Under the pieces are notes generated by a model. It was not told the origin of the DNA. It was given only the letters and a program-made list of their open reading frames with translations, and did not search any database. From a virus (lineage: Duplodnaviria > Heunggongvirae > Uroviricota > Caudoviricetes): a stretch of DNA of 35,227 bases. Positions 8,150 through 28,182 of this stretch are shown here, one piece after another. Position numbers and translations under genes: made by a program. The stretch lies in the IMG/VR virus record IMGVR_UViG_2778261451_000005. The stretch is one strand, 5' to 3'. Each line of letters begins with the position of its first letter. Within the stretch, counting starts at the first letter, position 1.

Positions 8150-8806
8150 ATGCGTAGAATGGAAGCTGCTTGGACGTGGGGTATTCATATGAATTTAAAA
8201 ATTTTCGGCATAATTGTCCTTTCTGCTTTGATGTTCGTTTTAGGTTTTTTTCTCGGTGGTTTTAATTGGGAATGGGCTGATAAGAATTATGCAGGTGAGG
8301 TGGCGTTGTGGAGTATGTTAGGAGGGTGGTTATCCGCAATTGCAACTCTGTTTGCCGTGTTGGTTTCATTATATATGGCGTATCAAGCTACTCAGAATGA
8401 GATTGAAAAAATCAGGGTTACTCATGGAGTAAGTATGAGTGTCACTCATGACAATGAGTTAAGTTGTAATCTCATTATTCAGAACTTGAGAAATATGAAA
8501 GTGAATATTACTGGTGTTTTTTTGTCTCTAGGTAAATCATCAGGTAAGTACTCTTTGGATAAAGTAATTGACAATCGTAATATAACGCTTTCATATAAAG
8601 GTGAAACAGAAAAGGTACAATTTGTAATCCATTCTGGGTATATTTGGTGGTCAATGTATAAATTATTCGATATGGATAAGAACATAGGTTTTGAAAAGGG
8701 TAAGATCTTTATAACAACCAACCTCAATACATATGAATTTGATTTGCCAAAAGAATATTTAAGAGCTTTTGAGAAAGCTTATTCGGAGTATCAGACAAAA
8801 AAATAA
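8150..8806 (+). CDS. Cargo gene 2: membrane-anchored protein of unknown function (two N-terminal TM helices plus ~130-aa domain)
   Basis: ATG at 8150 preceded by AAGGTG (ORF-track start 8135 is TTG); hydrophobic segments IFGIIVLSALMFVLGFFLGGF and LWSMLGGWLSAIATLFAVLVSLYMAY; strongly AT-rich. Confidence 0.7.
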   Translation: MRRMEAAWTWGIHMNLKIFGIIVLSALMFVLGFFLGGFNWEWADKNYAGEVALWSMLGGWLSAIATLFAVLVSLYMAYQATQNEIEKIRVTHGVSMSVTHDNELSCNLIIQNLRNMKVNITGVFLSLGKSSGKYSLDKVIDNRNITLSYKGETEKVQFVIHSGYIWWSMYKLFDMDKNIGFEKGKIFITTNLNTYEFDLPKEYLRAFEKAYSEYQTKK

Positions 8807-21670: not shown

Positions 21671-23776
21671 ATGAGCACAAAATTCAAAACCGTTATCACC
21701 ACTGCCGGTGCAGCAAAGCTGGCAGCGGCAACCGCACCGGGAGGGCGGAAGGTCAACATTACCACGATGGCCGTCGGGGATGGCGGTGGTAAATTGCCTG
21801 TCCCGGATGCCGGACAGACCGGGCTTATCCATGAAGTCTGGCGACATGCGCTGAACAAAATCACCCTGGACAAACGAAACAGTAATTATATTATCGCAGA
21901 GCTGGTTATTCCGCCGGAGGTGGGCGGTTTCTGGATGCGTGAGCTTGGCCTGTACGATGATGCGGGAACGCTAATTGCCGTGGCGAACATGGCTGAAAGT
22001 TATAAACCCGCTCTTGCCGAAGGCTCAGGGCGTTCGCAGACCTGCCGCATGGTCATCATCGTCAGCAGTGTGGCCTCAGTGGAGCTGACCATTGACACCA
22101 CAACGGTGATGGCAACGCAGGATTACGTTGATGACAAAATTGCAGAGCATGAACAGTCACGACGTCACCCGGACGCCTCGCTGACCGCAAAAGGTTTTAC
22201 TCAGTTAAGCAGTGCAACCAACAGCGCGTCTGAAACACTGGCTGCAACGCCGAAAGCGGTAAAGGCCGCGTATGACCTTGCTAACGGGAAATATACTGCG
22301 CAGGATGCCACCACAGCGCGAAAAGGTCTTGTCCAACTCAGTAGTGCCACCAACAGCACGTCTGAAACGCTCGCCGCAACACCAAAAGCGGTAAAGGCCG
22401 CGTATGACCTTGCTAACGGGAAATACACTGCACAGGACGCCACCACAGCGCGAAAAGGTCTTGTTCAGCTCAGTAGCGCCACCAACAGCGATTCTGAAAC
22501 GCTGGCCGCAACGCCAAAGGCGGTAAAGGTCGCGTATGACCTTGCTAACGGGAAATACACTGCACAGGACGCCACCACAGCGAGAAAAGGCCTTGTCCAG
22601 CTCAGTAGCGCCACCAACAGTGATTCTGAAACGCTTGCGGCAACGCCAAAGGCGGTAAAGGTCGCGTATGACCTTGCTAACGGGAAATACACTGCACAGG
22701 ATGCCACCACAGCGCGAAAAGGGCTTGTTCAGCTCAGTAGCGCCACCAACAGTGATTCTGAAACACTGGCCGCAACACCAAAAGCGGTGAAGTCTGCCTA
22801 TGACAATGCTGAAAAACGTCTTCAGAAAGATCAGAACGGTGCGGATATTCCTGATAAAAGATTATTCCTGCGCAATATTGGAGCAACAAATTCAACAACC
22901 ATGTCTTTTAGTGGTGGTACAGGATGGTTCAGGCTGGCAACTGTAACCATGCCCCAGGCCAGTTCCGTGGTTTACATAAGCCTGATTGGTGGTGCCGGAT
23001 ATAATGTTAACTCCCCTATGCAGGCTGGTATATCTGAACTTGTTCTTCGTGCGGGAAATGGAAATCCAAAAGGTCTTACTGGTGCGTTATGGCGACGGAC
23101 ATCGGTTGGATTTACTAATTTTGCATGGGTGAATACATCCGGTGATACCTATGATGTTTATGTTGAAATAGGTAATTACGCCACAGGTGTTAATATTCAG
23201 TGGGATTATACCAGTAACGCCAGCGTAACGATTCATACATCACCAACTTATACAGCGAATAAACCAACAGGCCTGACAGATGGAACTGTATATGTAATTT
23301 ACAGTTCGTACATTAAACCGACTGCTGCTGATGTTGGGGCGTTATCATTATCTGGTGGTCAATTGAATGGTGCTCTGGGTATAGGAACATCCAGTGCTCT
23401 TGGCGGTAATTCGATTGTTTTGGGTGATAATGACACGGGCTTTAAACAAAATGGTGATGGTAATCTGGATGTTTATGCTAATAGCGTCCATGTTATGCGC
23501 TTTGTCTCCGGAAGCGTTCAAAGTAATAAAACCATAAATATTACGGGGCGTGTTAATCCCTCGGATTACGGTAACTTTGATTCCCGCTATGTGAGAGATG
23601 TCAGACTTGGCACACGTGTTGTCCAGACCATGCAGAAAGGGGTGATGTATGAGAAAGCAGGGCACGTAATTACCGGGCTTGGTATTGTCGGTGAAGTCGA
23701 TGGTGATGACCCCGCAGTATTCAGACCAATACAAAAATACATCAATGGCACATGGTATAACGTCGCACAGGTGTAA
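21671..23776 (+). CDS. H: Tail fiber protein H with expanded internal repeats
   Basis: 701 aa; conserved N-terminus; about five tandem 44-aa repeats (…QLSSATNSxSETLAATPKAVKxAYDLANGKYTAQDATTARKG…); AT-richer C-terminal tip. Confidence 0.9.
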   Translation: MSTKFKTVITTAGAAKLAAATAPGGRKVNITTMAVGDGGGKLPVPDAGQTGLIHEVWRHALNKITLDKRNSNYIIAELVIPPEVGGFWMRELGLYDDAGTLIAVANMAESYKPALAEGSGRSQTCRMVIIVSSVASVELTIDTTTVMATQDYVDDKIAEHEQSRRHPDASLTAKGFTQLSSATNSASETLAATPKAVKAAYDLANGKYTAQDATTARKGLVQLSSATNSTSETLAATPKAVKAAYDLANGKYTAQDATTARKGLVQLSSATNSDSETLAATPKAVKVAYDLANGKYTAQDATTARKGLVQLSSATNSDSETLAATPKAVKVAYDLANGKYTAQDATTARKGLVQLSSATNSDSETLAATPKAVKSAYDNAEKRLQKDQNGADIPDKRLFLRNIGATNSTTMSFSGGTGWFRLATVTMPQASSVVYISLIGGAGYNVNSPMQAGISELVLRAGNGNPKGLTGALWRRTSVGFTNFAWVNTSGDTYDVYVEIGNYATGVNIQWDYTSNASVTIHTSPTYTANKPTGLTDGTVYVIYSSYIKPTAADVGALSLSGGQLNGALGIGTSSALGGNSIVLGDNDTGFKQNGDGNLDVYANSVHVMRFVSGSVQSNKTINITGRVNPSDYGNFDSRYVRDVRLGTRVVQTMQKGVMYEKAGHVITGLGIVGEVDGDDPAVFRPIQKYINGTWYNVAQV
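22189..22800 (+). repeat. About 4.6 tandem copies of a 132-bp coding repeat inside H
   Basis: Period 132 bp, nearly identical units; explains the spurious antisense ORFs 22201..22446 and 22465..22710. Confidence 0.85.
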
Positions 23777-23779
23777 TTT

Positions 23780-24307
23780 ATGCAGCATTTAAAAAATATT
23801 ACTGCGGGTAATCCAAAAACTGTTGCCCAATATCAACTGACAAAAAATTTTGATGTTATCTGGTTATGGTCCGAAGAGGGAAAAAACTGGTATGAGGAAG
23901 TAAGTAATTTTCAGGAAGACACGATAAAGATTGTTTACGATGAGAATAATATAATTGTCGGCATCACCAGAGATGCTTCAACGCTCAACCCTGAAGGTTT
24001 TAGCGTTGTCGAGGTTCCTGATATTACCGCCAACCGACGTGCTGATGACTCAGGTAAATGGATGTTTAAGGATGGTGCCGTGATTAAGCGGATTTATACG
24101 GCAGACGAACAGCTGCAACTGGCGGAATTACAGAAGTCAGCTTTGCTTTCCGAAGCTGAAACTATCATTCAGCCACTGGAACGCTCTGTCAGACTGAATA
24201 TGGCAACAGATGAGGAGCGTAGCCGACTGGAAGCATGGGAACGCTACAGTGTTCTGGTCAGCCGTGTGGATCCTGCAAATCCTGAATGGCCGGAAATGCC
24301 GCAATAA
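23780..24307 (+). CDS. G: Tail fiber assembly chaperone G
   Basis: 175 aa; follows H as in P2. Confidence 0.88.
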
Positions 24308-24341
24308 GTTGTATGATCTCTGGAGTGAGCTAACGTATCTA

Positions 24342-24383
24342 TAGCACAGAGTAAAGCCTAATCTGACAGTCTGCTCTGTGCTA
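24342..24383. repeat. Hairpin (10-bp stem tagcacagag / ctctgtgcta, 22-nt loop) carrying the left inverted-repeat site
   Basis: Read directly; no U-tract, so not a canonical terminator. Confidence 0.55.
24360..24375. repeat. Site L: 16-bp element aatctgacagtctgct, perfect inverted repeat of 26793..26808
   Basis: Exact reverse-complement match; candidate recombinase recognition site. Confidence 0.7.
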
Positions 24384-24485
24384 GGAGCGGACTGACCTGC
24401 TTCCCGATGATTAATACACAGCTATGCTAGTAATGTCCGTAGATCGCTGTGTGTTGCATCCATCGGTTGAACTCACAGTCCAAAC

Positions 24486-24506
24486 CAGACTGTCAGCTTT
24501 GATTAG
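24486..24506. repeat. Site M: cagactgtcagctttgattag, direct copy of site R (26795..26814) and inverted relative to site L
   Basis: 20 of 21 positions match site R, with one indel. Confidence 0.65.
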
Positions 24507-24659
24507 ATTCTACCTACTCAACCTGTCAGATAAGGTCTGAGCTAATACATCTAATATATGGCTTCGTGCAGGGGACGGCTATCGCGAACGTTAGGCCAGG
24601 TATCTGAATACGCACATTCACTTGGTTGTACTTCTTGCACTGATCTGCTATCCCGCACA

Positions 24660-24696
24660 GCTATTTATAGGTAATCTTCAGTGTATAATCTGCCAA
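24660..24696 (+). promoter_or_regulatory. Putative sigma70 promoter for the 280-aa cargo gene
   Basis: Perfect TATAAT at 24684..24689 with a weak -35; AGGAG SD at 24717..24721 before ATG 24728. Confidence 0.45.
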
Positions 24697-24727
24697 CTTA
24701 TGGAAGCTTGTACAACAGGAGAAATAT

Positions 24728-25570
24728 ATGAAAAAAGAATTGTTTGGACGTTGCCCGTTTGATCTTGACGAAGATGTAAAAAAAATAGCCGCGATAAATA
24801 AATATATCCATGCAAAATTTGAGGAGCATAAAAATAAAATAGACAACCTAAAGGGTGTGGAACAAAAATTGATGGTCTTACAGTACTTTAATGTACTGAA
24901 TGAACTTAGTAATCAGGCTATCTCTTCTTTGAATATAGGAGCCTTTTCAGCATCGGAAGTATTAGCTAGGGTTATAATAGAACAGGCTGCCAATCAATTT
25001 TATATAGCAATAGATGATGGCGAAAATGCACAAGCATTACTCAAGGCTAGTAAGAAATTAGTTCATAGTAATGGAAAACGGTGGCTGGAGTGTTTAAAAT
25101 CCAAAGGAATGACTAATCCAGCAGCAAATGAAAGGATTCGCATGGGAAAAGAACTAACTGATCTATTTAATAGATTGTGGCCAAATACACCTGAATATCC
25201 AGGAACCAGAAAACTTTTTGAATTAATTGGCTGGGAAACACACTATCATGCCCATTACGTTCCCCTTTGTGATTCAATACATACATTCTCTGATGATATG
25301 GTAAATATAGTATCTCTATATAATGCAATCCAAAGTGATGAAAATACTGCTATCGAATTCATTCTTGCAGTTAAACAAGAAAATAAACGGCTGGCAATTT
25401 ATAATTTTGTAATTGCTACGGCCCTTCGGTGTGAGGCCTTAGTAAATGTATTTAACTCTTTAGGTTATCAGGATATTATAACAGAAATGACACCAACAAT
25501 AGATACAGTCAACCAGACTATAATTCGATATGATGATTTTGATCATTCCAGAATTGATGATTGTCAATAA
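24728..25570 (+). CDS. Cargo gene: 280-aa soluble protein of unknown function (candidate defence/exclusion effector)
   Basis: ATG with AGGAG SD; AT-rich; no TM segments or motifs I recognise; in the P2 Z/fun position. Confidence 0.75.
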   Translation: MKKELFGRCPFDLDEDVKKIAAINKYIHAKFEEHKNKIDNLKGVEQKLMVLQYFNVLNELSNQAISSLNIGAFSASEVLARVIIEQAANQFYIAIDDGENAQALLKASKKLVHSNGKRWLECLKSKGMTNPAANERIRMGKELTDLFNRLWPNTPEYPGTRKLFELIGWETHYHAHYVPLCDSIHTFSDDMVNIVSLYNAIQSDENTAIEFILAVKQENKRLAIYNFVIATALRCEALVNVFNSLGYQDIITEMTPTIDTVNQTIIRYDDFDHSRIDDCQ

Positions 25571-25676
25571 TTAATTGACAGAATACGTACATGCGCAACA
25601 ACTAGTGATAGTTGACTTATTTTCGCTCTTGAGAGACAACCATACTCAAATCTCCCACATTGCAGGAGATTTGAAT

Positions 25677-26261
25677 ATGAAAACGTCACCGTGGAATAAA
25701 GACCGTACCATCGGTCAAAAAAGGCCACTTCAGATATCTCATATCTGGGGGATCCGGATTAGACTTGAGTTGGAAGGTAAAACACGCGATCTAGCTCTGT
25801 TCAACATGGCTTTGGACACTAAGCTACGGGGCTGTGATTTGGTCAAACTCAAAGTATCAGATGCTGCATATGGCAGTTCTGTCTCAAGCAGAGCAACGGT
25901 GTTGCAACAGAAAACCGGCAGCCCTGTCCAATTTGAGATAACCAAAGGGACAAGGGAAGCGGTTACTGCATTGATAAAGCTCGGCAACTGGCATAGTAAA
26001 GGCTTCCTGTTCCGCTCTCGGGTCGGAACTAACCACCATATATCAACCCGGCAATACAACCGAATTTTTCATGGGTGGGTAGAAAAGCTTGGTCTCGAAG
26101 ATTCGCTGTACAGCACACATTCCATGAGAAGAACAAAACCTTACTTAATCTACAAGAAAACCAAGAGTCTCCGGGTGATCCAACTTCTGTTGGGCCATAA
26201 GAAACTGGAAAGCACAGTCCGTTATTTGGGCATTGAAGTCGATATAGAAGGTCTCTTTTAA
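25677..26261 (+). CDS. Small tyrosine recombinase, catalytic domain only (FimB/FimE-like size)
   Basis: 194 aa from ATG at 25677 with AGGAG SD (ORF-track start 25575 rejected); catalytic signature R (…TKLRGCDL…), HxxR (…THSMRRT…), LLGHxxxxxTxxY (…LLGHKKLESTVRY…); lacks an N-terminal core-binding domain. Confidence 0.75.
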   Translation: MKTSPWNKDRTIGQKRPLQISHIWGIRIRLELEGKTRDLALFNMALDTKLRGCDLVKLKVSDAAYGSSVSSRATVLQQKTGSPVQFEITKGTREAVTALIKLGNWHSKGFLFRSRVGTNHHISTRQYNRIFHGWVEKLGLEDSLYSTHSMRRTKPYLIYKKTKSLRVIQLLLGHKKLESTVRYLGIEVDIEGLF

Positions 26262-26283
26262 GTTATGGGGGCTGATTTTATAT

Positions 26284-26661
26284 TCAATAGCGTATGCTCA
26301 TCGAAGAAATAAACTCATAAAATGTAAAGACAGCCAGCAAAAACATACAGATAAAGATAAGGGAAATAGCACACTTAACTAAGGGCTGAACCCCCCGAGG
26401 TGTTCCCCATGGTTTAGACATTTGGGTTATAACCCAAATAAATAAGGCCACAAAACAGCAAACACCAGCCAATCCGAGCAGAGATATTATGACAACTCCA
26501 AACAGATTTCCAACATCTAGTTTATCTGTTTTTGCAACTAGGGTTAACAAACCAGCAATAATAGTTGCAATCGATATTCCCGCAATGGTTGTGAGATCGG
26601 CGATAACAGCCAGTTTTTCTTTAGTATTTCCTTGAGTAAAAACCTCTAAAATTGATTTCAT
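26284..26661 (-). CDS. Cargo gene: 125-aa membrane protein (three predicted TM helices), convergent with the recombinase
   Basis: ATG at 26661 with AGGTGG SD; TATAAT-like -10 elements upstream on minus strand; hydrophobic segments throughout; AT-rich. Confidence 0.65.
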   Translation of the reverse strand: MKSILEVFTQGNTKEKLAVIADLTTIAGISIATIIAGLLTLVAKTDKLDVGNLFGVVIISLLGLAGVCCFVALFIWVITQMSKPWGTPRGVQPLVKCAISLIFICMFLLAVFTFYEFISSMSIRY

Positions 26662-26792
26662 GGAAATAACCACCTACTATCGATTATATTCAGGAGCTTT
26701 TTATTATAACGATATCAGATAGATAAGGACATTGTAATATTTTGGATGATTTAAACTTGCTTTTGTAACTCTAATGTCCACTTTTCGCTCAA

Positions 26793-26814
26793 AGCAGACT
26801 GTCAGATTTGATAG
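26793..26814. repeat. Site R: agcagactgtcagatttgatag (inverted partner of site L, direct partner of site M)
   Basis: Exact 16-bp reverse-complement match to 24360..24375; lies between the island and FI. Confidence 0.7.
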
Positions 26815-26867
26815 CATTTGGGCTATGTAAATTGTCAGGCGGAAAATGAGTGAGTACAAATCAGGAC

Positions 26868-26895
26868 AGGCGGGCGAATTGCCCGCCTTTTCTTT
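26868..26895 (+). terminator. Rho-independent terminator upstream of FI
   Basis: aggcgggc / gcccgcct stem, 5-nt loop, followed by TTTTCTTT. Confidence 0.7.
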
Positions 26896-26991
26896 ATCTG
26901 TTGTTTCATCCACTGACCAGTCAGGTCAAATAGCGTCTCATGCACTGCCCAACAGAAAATAGTTGCACCCATTAACCACGGAGTTAAACGG
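26896..26991 (+). promoter_or_regulatory. Region expected to contain late promoter P_F
   Basis: Position upstream of FI as in P2; specific Ogr dyad not confidently located. Confidence 0.4.
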
Positions 26992-28182
26992 ATGAGTGAC
27001 TATCATCATGGCGTGCAGGTGCTGGAGATTAACGACGGCACCCGCGTCATTTCCACCGTATCCACTGCCATTGTCGGCATGGTCTGCACGGCCAGCGATG
27101 CGGATGCGGAAACCTTCCCCCTCAATAAACCGGTGCTGATTACCAATGTGCAAAGCGCAATTGCAAAGGCCGGTAAAAAAGGCACGCTGGCGGCATCGTT
27201 GCAGGCCATCGCTGACCAGTCAAAACCGGTCACCGTTGTCGTGCGCGTGGAAGACGGCACCGGTGATGACGAGGAAACGAAACTCGCGCAGACCGTTTTC
27301 AATATCATCGGCACCACCGACGAAAACGGTCAGTACACCGGACTAAAAGCCCTGCTGGCGGCGGAGTCGGTAACCGGTGTTAAACCGCGTATTCTCGGTG
27401 TGCCGGGACTGGATACCAAAGAGGTGGCTGTTGCACTGGCATCCGTCTGTCAGAAGCTGCGCGCTTTCGGATATATCAGCGCATGGGGCTGTAAGACCAT
27501 TTCCGAGGTGAAAGCCTACCGCCAGAATTTCAGCCAGCGTGAGCTGATGGTCATCTGGCCGGATTTCCTCGCATGGGATACGGTCACCAGTACCACCGCC
27601 ACCGCGTATGCCACCGCCCGTGCGCTGGGTCTGCGCGCTAAAATCGACCAGGAGCAGGGCTGGCATAAAACGCTGTCCAACGTCGGGGTAAACGGTGTTA
27701 CCGGCATCAGCGCGTCCGTATTCTGGGATTTGCAGGAGTCCGGCACCGATGCTGACCTGCTTAACGAGTCAGGCGTCACAACGCTGATTCGCCGTGACGG
27801 TTTCCGCTTCTGGGGTAACCGTACCTGCTCTGATGACCCGCTGTTCCTCTTTGAAAACTACACCCGCACCGCGCAGGTGCTGGCCGACACGATGGCTGAG
27901 GCGCACATGTGGGCGGTGGACAAGCCCATCACCGCAACGCTGATTCGCGACATCGTTGACGGCATCAATGCCAAATTCCGAGAGCTGAAAACAAACGGCT
28001 ATATCGTGGATGCGACCTGCTGGTTCAGCGAAGAATCCAACGATGCGGAAACCCTCAAGGCCGGAAAACTGTATATCGACTACGACTATACCCCGGTGCC
28101 TCCTCTCGAAAACCTGACCCTGCGCCAGCGTATTACCGATAAATACCTGGCAAATCTGGTCACCTCGGTTAACAGCAATTAA
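26992..28182 (+). CDS. FI: Tail sheath protein FI
   Basis: 396 aa; P2 size and order. Confidence 0.93.
   Translation: MSDYHHGVQVLEINDGTRVISTVSTAIVGMVCTASDADAETFPLNKPVLITNVQSAIAKAGKKGTLAASLQAIADQSKPVTVVVRVEDGTGDDEETKLAQTVFNIIGTTDENGQYTGLKALLAAESVTGVKPRILGVPGLDTKEVAVALASVCQKLRAFGYISAWGCKTISEVKAYRQNFSQRELMVIWPDFLAWDTVTSTTATAYATARALGLRAKIDQEQGWHKTLSNVGVNGVTGISASVFWDLQESGTDADLLNESGVTTLIRRDGFRFWGNRTCSDDPLFLFENYTRTAQVLADTMAEAHMWAVDKPITATLIRDIVDGINAKFRELKTNGYIVDATCWFSEESNDAETLKAGKLYIDYDYTPVPPLENLTLRQRITDKYLANLVTSVNSN

Follow-up and report, generated by a model that had tools for sequence, protein, structure and literature searches.

A mosaic cargo island between genes G and FI of a P2-like prophage and a proposed site-specific cassette slot

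The subject of this study is a 35,227-nt stretch of DNA from a tailed phage of the class Caudoviricetes (IMG/VR record IMGVR_UViG_2778261451_000005; the window), and in particular its interval 24308-26991, which occupies the Z/fun position of P2-like phages between the tail-fibre assembly gene G (PF02413, stop at 24307) and gene FI (sheath domains, start at 26992). This interval holds no Z/fun and carries three open reading frames (ORFs), namely a plus-strand gene for a 280-amino-acid (aa) DUF5677 protein (24728-25570; PF18928, phrog_4167), a plus-strand gene for a 194-aa tyrosine recombinase (25677-26261) and, convergent with the latter, a minus-strand gene (26284-26661; phrog_4155) for a 125-aa membrane protein with three hydrophobic segments at residues 16-45, 47-83 and 90-123, as predicted from its sequence (the three-transmembrane, or 3-TM, protein). 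An original prediction, made from the letters of the window alone, had taken these genes to be one recombinase-bounded module that might be inverted or excised as a phase-variable defence island. The genes, repeats and hotspot location that it described hold up in our analysis, and the recombinase-bounded invertible island does not; the interval is probably the remains of a two-cassette array in a cassette slot of the P2 backbone, for which we propose that cargo is exchanged at two types of core site, A and B, by a small tyrosine recombinase.

The RefSeq annotation of the identical locus in Escherichia coli PCN033, which is 99.8-100% identical to the window at the island, gives the same G and FI neighbours and the same three genes. 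GC content is 0.34-0.39 in the DUF5677 and 3-TM genes and 0.45-0.47 in the recombinase gene, compared to approximately 0.55 in the flanking phage genes, and the cargo of P2 itself shows no similarity to that of the window, with the flanks alone matching; ORFs, boundaries, low GC content and lack of similarity to P2 cargo all agree with the description of an AT-rich three-gene cargo. The first gene had also been called promoter-driven, which fared less well, as a perfect TATAAT (24684-24689) sits 39 nt before the DUF5677 ATG without a good -35 element and a consensus scan flagged nothing. An Rfam scan of 24200-27100 returned no family. Searches of isolated phage genomes by tblastn gave no match for the 3-TM protein and three remote matches for the recombinase, and the genes for these two proteins are seen in prophages only.

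The DUF5677 assignment is well above threshold (E 5e-10, 40.1 bits versus a gathering score of 27.1). The protein is all-helical, and its AlphaFold2 model (predicted local distance difference test score of 70) is a helical bundle with generic helical matches only, in which an invariant patch of residues (H174, C181, D182, H185, D189 and D190) falls in a low-confidence part. Homologues with 42-44% identity occur in lambdoid prophages, without the recombinase, at the kind of position that the DUF5677 gene occupies in the lambdoid prophage of strain E2348/69.

Repeats and core sites of the G-FI slot

The interval is bracketed by a perfect 16-bp inverted repeat, AATCTGACAGTCTGCT, at 24360-24375 (plus strand) and 26793-26808 (minus strand), and a third, middle copy at 24484-24499 is direct relative to the right copy; the predicted arrangement was thus found, with two mismatches in the third copy. 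Three matches compare with 0.23 expected, and none of 100 shuffles reached three. The repeats are not private to the island as had been supposed, however. Megablast against phage genomes matched the interval at its two ends only, with 93-95% identity, in P2, Wphi, L-413C, HQ103 and P2-EC proviral records, which bears out the view of the interval as foreign cargo in the P2 Z/fun hotspot, and GenBank entries AJ512683, AJ512685 and AJ512677 already carry the annotations 'left inverted repeat' and 'right inverted repeat'. The left of these regions (24280-24392, plus strand; repeat_region 3-115 of all three entries) comprises the end of G and the intergenic flank, and the right (26776-26866, plus strand) corresponds to repeat_region 1743-1833 of AJ512683; it is followed by an intrinsic terminator (26868-26898, plus strand) that belongs to the phage backbone, separates the cargo slot from the FI operon and is kept in all aligned hotspots.

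Seven aligned hotspots with different cargo conserve the left flank up to ...CTCTGTGCC and the right flank from TCGCTCAAAGCAGACTGTCAG onward, all sequence between the two flanks differing, and two further cargos show the same flank pattern. Every cargo in the P2-like phages compared diverges immediately after the left repeat region, and the recombinase gene is absent from all nine of these other P2-slot cargos; comparison at the G-FI junction thus finds the repeats constant and the cargo different each time. Some match to the interval was present in 1630 of 5426 complete E. coli genomes, and the right-flank match starts, for the majority of listed rows, at query positions 2460-2478 (window 26767-26785), which is the right site. 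The repeats are a property of the P2 Z/fun hotspot, not of the island. A stretch of a Providencia heimbachae locus (L032, 4575-4688), situated 1.3 kb upstream of a recombinase gene, is 74-83% similar to the entire P2 'left inverted repeat', including its outer hairpin GCACAGAG...CTCTGTGC; the longer left repeat is therefore not P2-specific.

Within these repeats lie core sites of two types, the 16-bp arm of the original prediction being the inner flank and inner arm shared by both sites. The left core site (24369-24392, plus strand) is of type A, consisting of inner arm GTCTGCT, CT, centre GTGCTA, GG and outer arm AGCGGAC, and folds as a 10-8-10 hairpin (z -2.4), and the right core site (26776-26799, minus strand) is an inverted type B site that reads, on the plus strand, outer arm GTCCACT, centre TCGCTC and inner arm AGCAGAC. 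Identity between the two does not extend beyond inner flank and inner arm, and their centres are different (CTGTGCTAGG in the left site versus TTGAGCGAAA in the right), which disfavours recombination of left with right (GTGCTA versus GAGCGA). Across the sites collected, type A has inner arm GTCYGCT, centre GTGCCA and outer arm AGCGGAC (consensus gtCcGcT.tGTGCCAgaAGCGGACgTt), and type B has centre GAGCGA (consensus ggtC.gctatGAGCGAgaAGCGGAcgTt). Both types consist of 7-bp inverted arms around a centre of approximately 10 nt, which is the build of a tyrosine-recombinase core site, and it is very probable, as had been predicted, that the repeats are recombination sites; they are of the kind that accompanies the recombinase family.

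On the 3' side of native recombinase genes, a stem-loop is followed by (G/T)GCCA-NN-AGCGG(A/C)C. Because the left boundary of P2, which reads GTCCGCTCTGTGCCAGAAGCGGA, resembles this sequence, sites were searched for with two seeds, GTGCCAGAAGCGGAC for type A and GAGCGAGAAGCGGAC for type B, with at most two mismatches allowed. A total of 66 sites were identified in 209 kb of 18 enterobacterial recombinase loci, compared to 0.63 (maximum 3) in dinucleotide shuffles, and the 35-kb window contains exactly two, at 24362-24400 (A, plus strand) and 26768-26806 (B, minus strand). These sites follow a strict grammar. Relative to the recombinase, 32 were A+, 28 B-, three A- and three B+; an A+ site was followed by a B- site at 619-5072 bp in 18 pairs, which we term cassettes, and a B- site was followed by an A+ site in 14 pairs, including seven at 26-43 bp (80-bp junction elements) and four at 683-686 bp that span the recombinase gene. 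An A(+) site is present at the left end of every P2 hotspot examined, and a B(-) site at the right end of every one apart from L-413C, whose right end has diverged.

The middle copy lacks a core. It is part of a tract of site debris (24393-24530, no strand assigned) that travels whole with the DUF5677 gene in a lambdoid prophage of strain E2348/69 and in which we recognized a 40-nt cassette-end motif, a degenerate inverted type B site (24427-24465, five mismatches) and a 49-nt, 71% copy of the inner flank of the right repeat (24481-24529), the last of which includes the middle copy. The cassette-end motif, (C)TGACCTGCTCCCCGNTGATTAAYACACAG, recurs just within the inverted-B end of unrelated cassettes (window 24392-24430; L003 3966-4010; L004 6001-6040; L103 approximately 1925-1965; L025 approximately 8280-8320) and could be either a site for an accessory factor or a 3' signal of cassettes.

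The recombinase family and its cassettes

The recombinase of the window matches PF00589 only (residues 35-184, E 9e-18), with R51, K79, H148, R151, H174 and Y183 all present and invariant in the family alignment, and the N-terminal DNA-binding domain is absent, in agreement with its earlier description as a catalytic-domain-only enzyme. Its assignment to the FimB/FimE type has to be given up, as the invertase models score far below their cut-offs (NF007371, 22.9 bits versus 222; NF007370, 14.5 versus 221), and so do the integron-integrase models (NF011946, 18.3 bits versus 435; TIGR02249, 18.2 versus 265); no NCBIfam model claims the protein. The name IntKX subgroup was considered and rejected, since it denotes the integrases of PAPI-1/ICEEc2-type islands. 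At E <= 1e-5 the family comprises at least 7986 protein clusters, and the best 120 matches are 72-96% identical and nearly all 196-203 aa long. Family members occur in Enterobacterales, Proteus, Providencia, Pantoea, Idiomarina and Cycloclasticus, and in contigs representing one genome per species, relatives with at least 60% identity reach Pseudomonas, Burkholderiales and methylotrophs; marine elements with traF/H/G carry the gene amid ars and metal-resistance cargo. Approximately 870 of the 5426 E. coli genomes carry the recombinase gene, mostly beside other neighbours.

All-against-all BLAST identified a 705-bp recombinase unit as the sole element common to 12 enterobacterial loci, with its start 1-18 nt from a B centre and its end 2-21 nt from an A centre. 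The corresponding unit of the window (25620-26243, plus strand) begins at the equivalent point, is 3'-truncated and ends 67 nt short of the expected type A site. Its 5' end carries a degenerate type B site (25614-25638, minus strand, five mismatches to the seed), the equivalent of which is intact at the same offset in other loci and marks the point where cross-species homology begins. With the 3' end the gene lost the C-terminal tail of the family (DALE..E.), which is kept in 10 of 10 other aligned members, down to 59% identity; the last 11 residues of the 200-aa full-length protein are replaced by IEGLF. The join, at 26243, falls in the loop of the bidirectional terminator of the neighbouring 3-TM cassette (AAAAGAGACCTT-ATA-GAAGGTCTCTTTT), and the last five recombinase codons are thus read from an arm of this terminator. 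Judging from the loss of an invariant C-terminus, the local recombinase is probably impaired. In E2348/69 the gene is a pseudogene, and in IHE3034 it was deleted through a 5-nt GTAAA microhomology.

Several further features of the recombinase unit were observed. A 15-bp inverted repeat (25641-25679, plus strand; fold -9.9 kcal/mol, z -6.0) covers the ribosome binding site and ATG of the recombinase gene, such that the Shine-Dalgarno (SD) sequence and ATG pair with an upstream anti-SD sequence; marine copies keep this repeat, with one compensatory change, and it may serve translational control of the recombinase or represent another protein-binding site. The stem-loop directly 3' of the recombinase stop codon (e.g., L003 6664-6690; approximately 60 of 80 loci), which precedes a type A centre, varies in sequence by clade with its pairing always kept, and it is not a standard terminator, since no T-run follows. 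Two loci each contain two recombinase units a few kb apart (L023, 5939-6645 and 9794-10495; L033, 1172-1870 and 3903-4593), an arrangement that points to longer arrays containing several platforms.

The island is a mosaic, and its three genes, each of which occurs without the others, are not the conserved module that had been proposed. Strain TUM18781 carries no cargo other than the 3-TM gene between G and FI, and this cassette is 99.9% identical to window 26243-27049; the window retains a remainder (26243-26775, minus strand) with the right half of the terminator (26246-26259) and the 125-aa gene. Window 24392-26243, comprising leader, DUF5677 gene and recombinase gene, has a counterpart of 87-90% identity in a Qin-like lambdoid prophage of E2348/69, in which the segment sits in the region bounded by the replication genes and hokD, with Septu following it. 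Neither a DUF5677 nor a 3-TM neighbour is present at any of 80 recombinase loci of other species. Insertion sequence (IS) elements were also seen in the same island, namely ISEc12, inserted after the left site and ahead of the DUF5677 gene, as well as an IS3-family element, with strains 98208 (L006, 505-2807) and GPEC128-620 (H73) as the IS-bearing carriers.

Chimeric junction queries were run against the 5426 complete E. coli genomes, with at least 80% of the query required for a match. The junction of the inverted form (left by right) was found in none of the 5426 genomes, nor was the junction of a middle-by-right deletion, and the full island was present in 36, always in a single arrangement; an IS insertion or a microhomology deletion was seen in others. 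These results do not support the prediction of an invertible or excisable element.

Evidence of cassettes shared across phage types came from viral contigs, in which a scan for TGTGCCANNAGCGGAC gave 121 matches. While this raw count of the A pattern is uninformative alone, 80 of the 121 matches carry the left arm GTCCGCT, which the pattern leaves unspecified, at no more than two mismatches, compared to approximately 1.6 expected, and this enrichment shows that these hits are genuine sites. Eighteen lambdoid-type sites (GTGGTT-GTCCGCT-TT) all have TT before GTGCCA and then continue into eight different sequences; 17 P2-type sites (CTGACA-GTCCGCT) have CT in 15 cases and TT in two and then continue into 16 different sequences. 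Since fixed platform sequence precedes and varied cargo follows in these 35 sites, the switch from platform to cargo lies within GTGCCA. A count of B sites downstream of A sites in the same contigs was dropped, as the loose pattern has a background of 1.8 per 8 kb.

One 1.03-kb cassette is 99.7% identical between a P2-like contig (L215, 5659-6688) and a Qin-like contig (L168, 10699-11729), with homology that extends from the A site to within TCGCTCAAAGC of the B site and no similarity outside. The FI gene of L215 shows 99.7% identity, and on either side of the slot the L168 backbone matches strain F070 at 95% identity; in this same lambdoid slot, F070 carries three cassettes and the recombinase gene, and L168 carries one cassette and no recombinase gene. 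The shared cassette encodes a 269-aa ORF without a Pfam or PADLOC match, which can be regarded as a good candidate defence gene.

Known defence systems are found at both kinds of location, in agreement with the prediction that the P2 locus is a defence cargo hotspot. The same P2 slot holds Shedu SduA in P2-EC31 (E 9e-163) and PDC-S15, an FRG-domain protein and PADLOC candidate, in A3024 (E 7e-99), and a 2026 survey of P2/P4 elements attributed 16% of the defence systems of P2-like prophages to the tail-gene hotspot. Beside the recombinase gene in lambdoid prophages, we identified PD-T7-1 in F070 (E 7e-157) and Septu PtuA/PtuB in E2348/69 (E 2e-165 and 1e-83), these being the cassettes that directly adjoin the recombinase gene in E. 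coli lambdoid prophages (L003, 4388-5737, and L004, 8199-10194). By analogy with neighbouring cassettes, the DUF5677 and 3-TM genes are candidates for single-gene anti-phage or exclusion functions.

Proposed cassette exchange and its alternatives

As an explanation that we consider somewhat better supported than not, we propose that the interval is what remains of a two-cassette array that decayed within a site-specific P2 cassette slot. The P2 backbone would supply inverted core sites, type A on the left and type B on the right, with exchangeable cargo between them; because strand exchange needs matching centres, each type of site would pair only with its own kind. Such pairing would permit integration or swapping of cassettes between elements that have both sites, including P2-like phages, Qin-like lambdoid prophages, plasmids and integrative and conjugative elements (ICEs), and would not permit inversion or excision of cargo through A by B recombination. 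The candidate catalyst is the widespread 200-aa tyrosine recombinase without a core-binding domain, the gene for which, with an inverted B site before it and an A site after it, would occupy the junction position between two cassettes. We infer from the arrangement of units and sites that this family acts on A and B sites, and the two centres are probably heterospecific.

Under this proposal, the slot would read, from left to right, A site, debris and DUF5677 cassette, degenerate inverted B site, recombinase gene, deletion, 3-TM cassette and inverted B site. A unit consisting of DUF5677 cassette, inverted B site, recombinase gene and A site probably entered the A site of a P2-like element that already carried the 3-TM cassette, a relative of the DUF5677 and recombinase unit being present at 89% identity in a lambdoid prophage. 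A deletion at a 2-nt microhomology would subsequently have removed the last 11 codons of the recombinase gene, the 3' stem-loop, the A site and approximately 325 bp of the 3-TM cassette, leaving an array that would now be static. This order of events is plausible and no more, because the un-deleted intermediate was not found among complete E. coli genomes and the left junction in E2348/69 is not clean. The island would accordingly be the fossil of an array rather than a switch, with cargo genes that are best considered separately.

A phase-variable defence island, inverted or excised by its own FimB/FimE-type recombinase acting on the 16-bp repeats and third copy, would account for a perfect inverted repeat with a third copy, for an enclosed recombinase with a complete catalytic signature and for repeats of a type that accompanies this recombinase family. 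Against this, nine cargos without the recombinase are flanked by the same repeats, the 36 genomes with the island show one arrangement, neither rearranged junction occurs in the 5426 genomes, and the enzyme, besides scoring a tenth or so of the invertase cut-off, has lost its invariant C-terminus and its 3' site; we give this explanation almost no weight, phase variation being very unlikely because the centres differ, the middle copy is coreless and the enzyme is truncated. It is also highly improbable that the three genes form one anti-phage system with the recombinase-like protein as effector or regulator. The location in a defence hotspot and the adjacency of DUF5677 and recombinase genes in two phage types would fit such a system, but the 3-TM gene stands alone in TUM18781, DUF5677 homologues occur without the recombinase, the 80 recombinase loci lack both partners, and PADLOC gives no match.

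A more serious, although still unlikely, alternative holds that the repeats are short conserved structural or regulatory elements of the phage, that cargo is replaced via homologous or illegitimate recombination (e.g., lambda Red, RecA) and that the recombinase is an unrelated, decaying integrase carried as cargo. Consistent with it are the microhomology joins at 26243 and in IHE3034, the pseudogene in E2348/69 and the deletion in IHE3034, as well as the 2026 survey, which covered thousands of P2/P4 elements and named only transposable elements and homologous or illegitimate recombination as candidates. It does not readily explain why the recombinase gene lies at a fixed offset between inverted B and A sites, with its unit ending in the site centres at 12 enterobacterial loci, why sites of arm-centre-arm build obey a strict orientation grammar, or why platform and cassette switch within 6-11 identical nt in at least 35 sites, a length that is too short for RecA or Red. 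In addition, the recombinase is 60-98% identical across many genera, indicating purifying selection.

A number of observations also weigh against the cassette slot that we prefer. The association of recombinase and sites is positional and comparative only, and outside the enterobacterial clade an A-like centre follows the gene at 28 of 78 loci and a B-like centre precedes it at 12 of 78. At the left junction of the DUF5677 module in E2348/69, 30 extra nt follow a degenerate A site, which is not a clean A by A product; the join of 2 nt that forms the window's right junction is illegitimate; and a junction query of the complete E. coli genomes for the un-deleted ancestor gave no match. Events that are not site-specific therefore shape the locus too, as is also seen in the 5-nt microhomology loss in IHE3034. 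With regard to a defence function, no PADLOC 2.0 model matched any of the three island proteins at E <= 0.1, and the five ORFs that protected in a six-phage panel did not include an enterococcal DUF5677 ORF.

Among the known systems closest to the proposed slot is the P2 Z/fun variable region itself (AJ512677-AJ512685), with which it shares the G-FI position, the left and right repeats and foreign AT-rich cargo, the cargo being different; the window analysis adds two core types with different centres. The Z/fun hotspot and its repeats are already known, although no recombinase had been tied to these repeats before, as far as we could find. Integrons likewise have promoter-poor cassette arrays, short imperfect inverted-repeat junctions and a tyrosine recombinase beside the array, and their cassettes, many of which are defence genes, are common to unrelated replicons. 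In contrast to integron integrases, the recombinase family of the window is 200 aa long and has neither a core-binding domain nor the IntI-specific insertion; the A and B sites lack the attC boxes RYYYAAC/GTTRRRY (R''/R'), and the system has two alternating site types, a recombinase gene inside the array at a junction, and a phage or ICE platform. The pdif modules of Acinetobacter plasmids and engineered lox/FRT cassette exchange also bracket cargo with two inverted core sites, permit swaps between replicons that have the same pair and are not expected to excise or invert cargo if centres differ; however, the A and B sites bear no relation to dif (11-6-11), the enzyme differs from XerC/XerD, and A/B heterospecificity is deduced from sequence only. 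FimB/FimE and other small promoter-inverting recombinases resemble the window enzyme in their size of approximately 200 aa, the lack of an N-terminal DNA-binding domain and the presence of inverted repeats; the window enzyme scores far below the cut-offs of that family, the window repeats have different centres, and no second orientation was found in the 36 genomes.

Three aspects of this analysis appear to be new, namely the apparent resolution of the P2 repeats into two core sites that are probably heterospecific, a site grammar common to the P2 slot and a widespread catalytic-domain-only recombinase, and direct evidence that P2-like and lambdoid phages have shared a cassette with precise boundaries. 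A literature search found nothing relevant for the site sequences or for a small recombinase with prophage cassettes. Nilsson, Karlsson and Haggard-Ljungquist reportedly described the P2 Z/fun variable region with flanking inverted repeats in 2004, together with the idea of site-specific exchange, and part of the site structure may already have been described there.

More tentatively, with a likelihood that we place somewhat short of even, the window may represent an undescribed cassette system, integron-like and mechanistically distinct, that is common to gammaproteobacterial P2-like and Qin-like phages, plasmids and ICEs; similarly tentative are the parts that would define it, that is, heterospecific A and B sites, 80-bp B/A junctions and a junction-encoded 200-aa recombinase. 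If it exists, this system would bring Shedu, Septu and PD-T7-1, together with other cargo such as ars and metal operons, into hotspots and from one hotspot to another, and the window would represent its enzyme gene caught in the P2 Z/fun slot, the repeats of which were noticed in 2004. The open question addressed here is how defence genes reach a few hotspots and jump between unrelated mobile elements. If sites and recombinase are a working pair, they would provide a concrete and testable hotspot mechanism; A and B sites could serve as search handles for cassettes and new defence genes, as attC does for integrons, and a minimal 200-aa recombinase with two heterospecific sites could be a natural tool for cassette exchange.

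Tail-fibre genes beside the slot

Upstream of G, the tail-fibre gene H (21671-23776) contains 4.5 tandem copies of a 132-bp (44-aa) unit at 22217-22804, with 91% matching. The H gene of PCN033 is shorter and is annotated as frameshifted, and the number of repeats therefore varies between near-identical prophages. GC content is 0.41-0.43 over 22800-24300, which comprises the 3' half of H as well as G, and the receptor-binding end of the fibre and its chaperone look to have been acquired horizontally, separately from the cassette slot.

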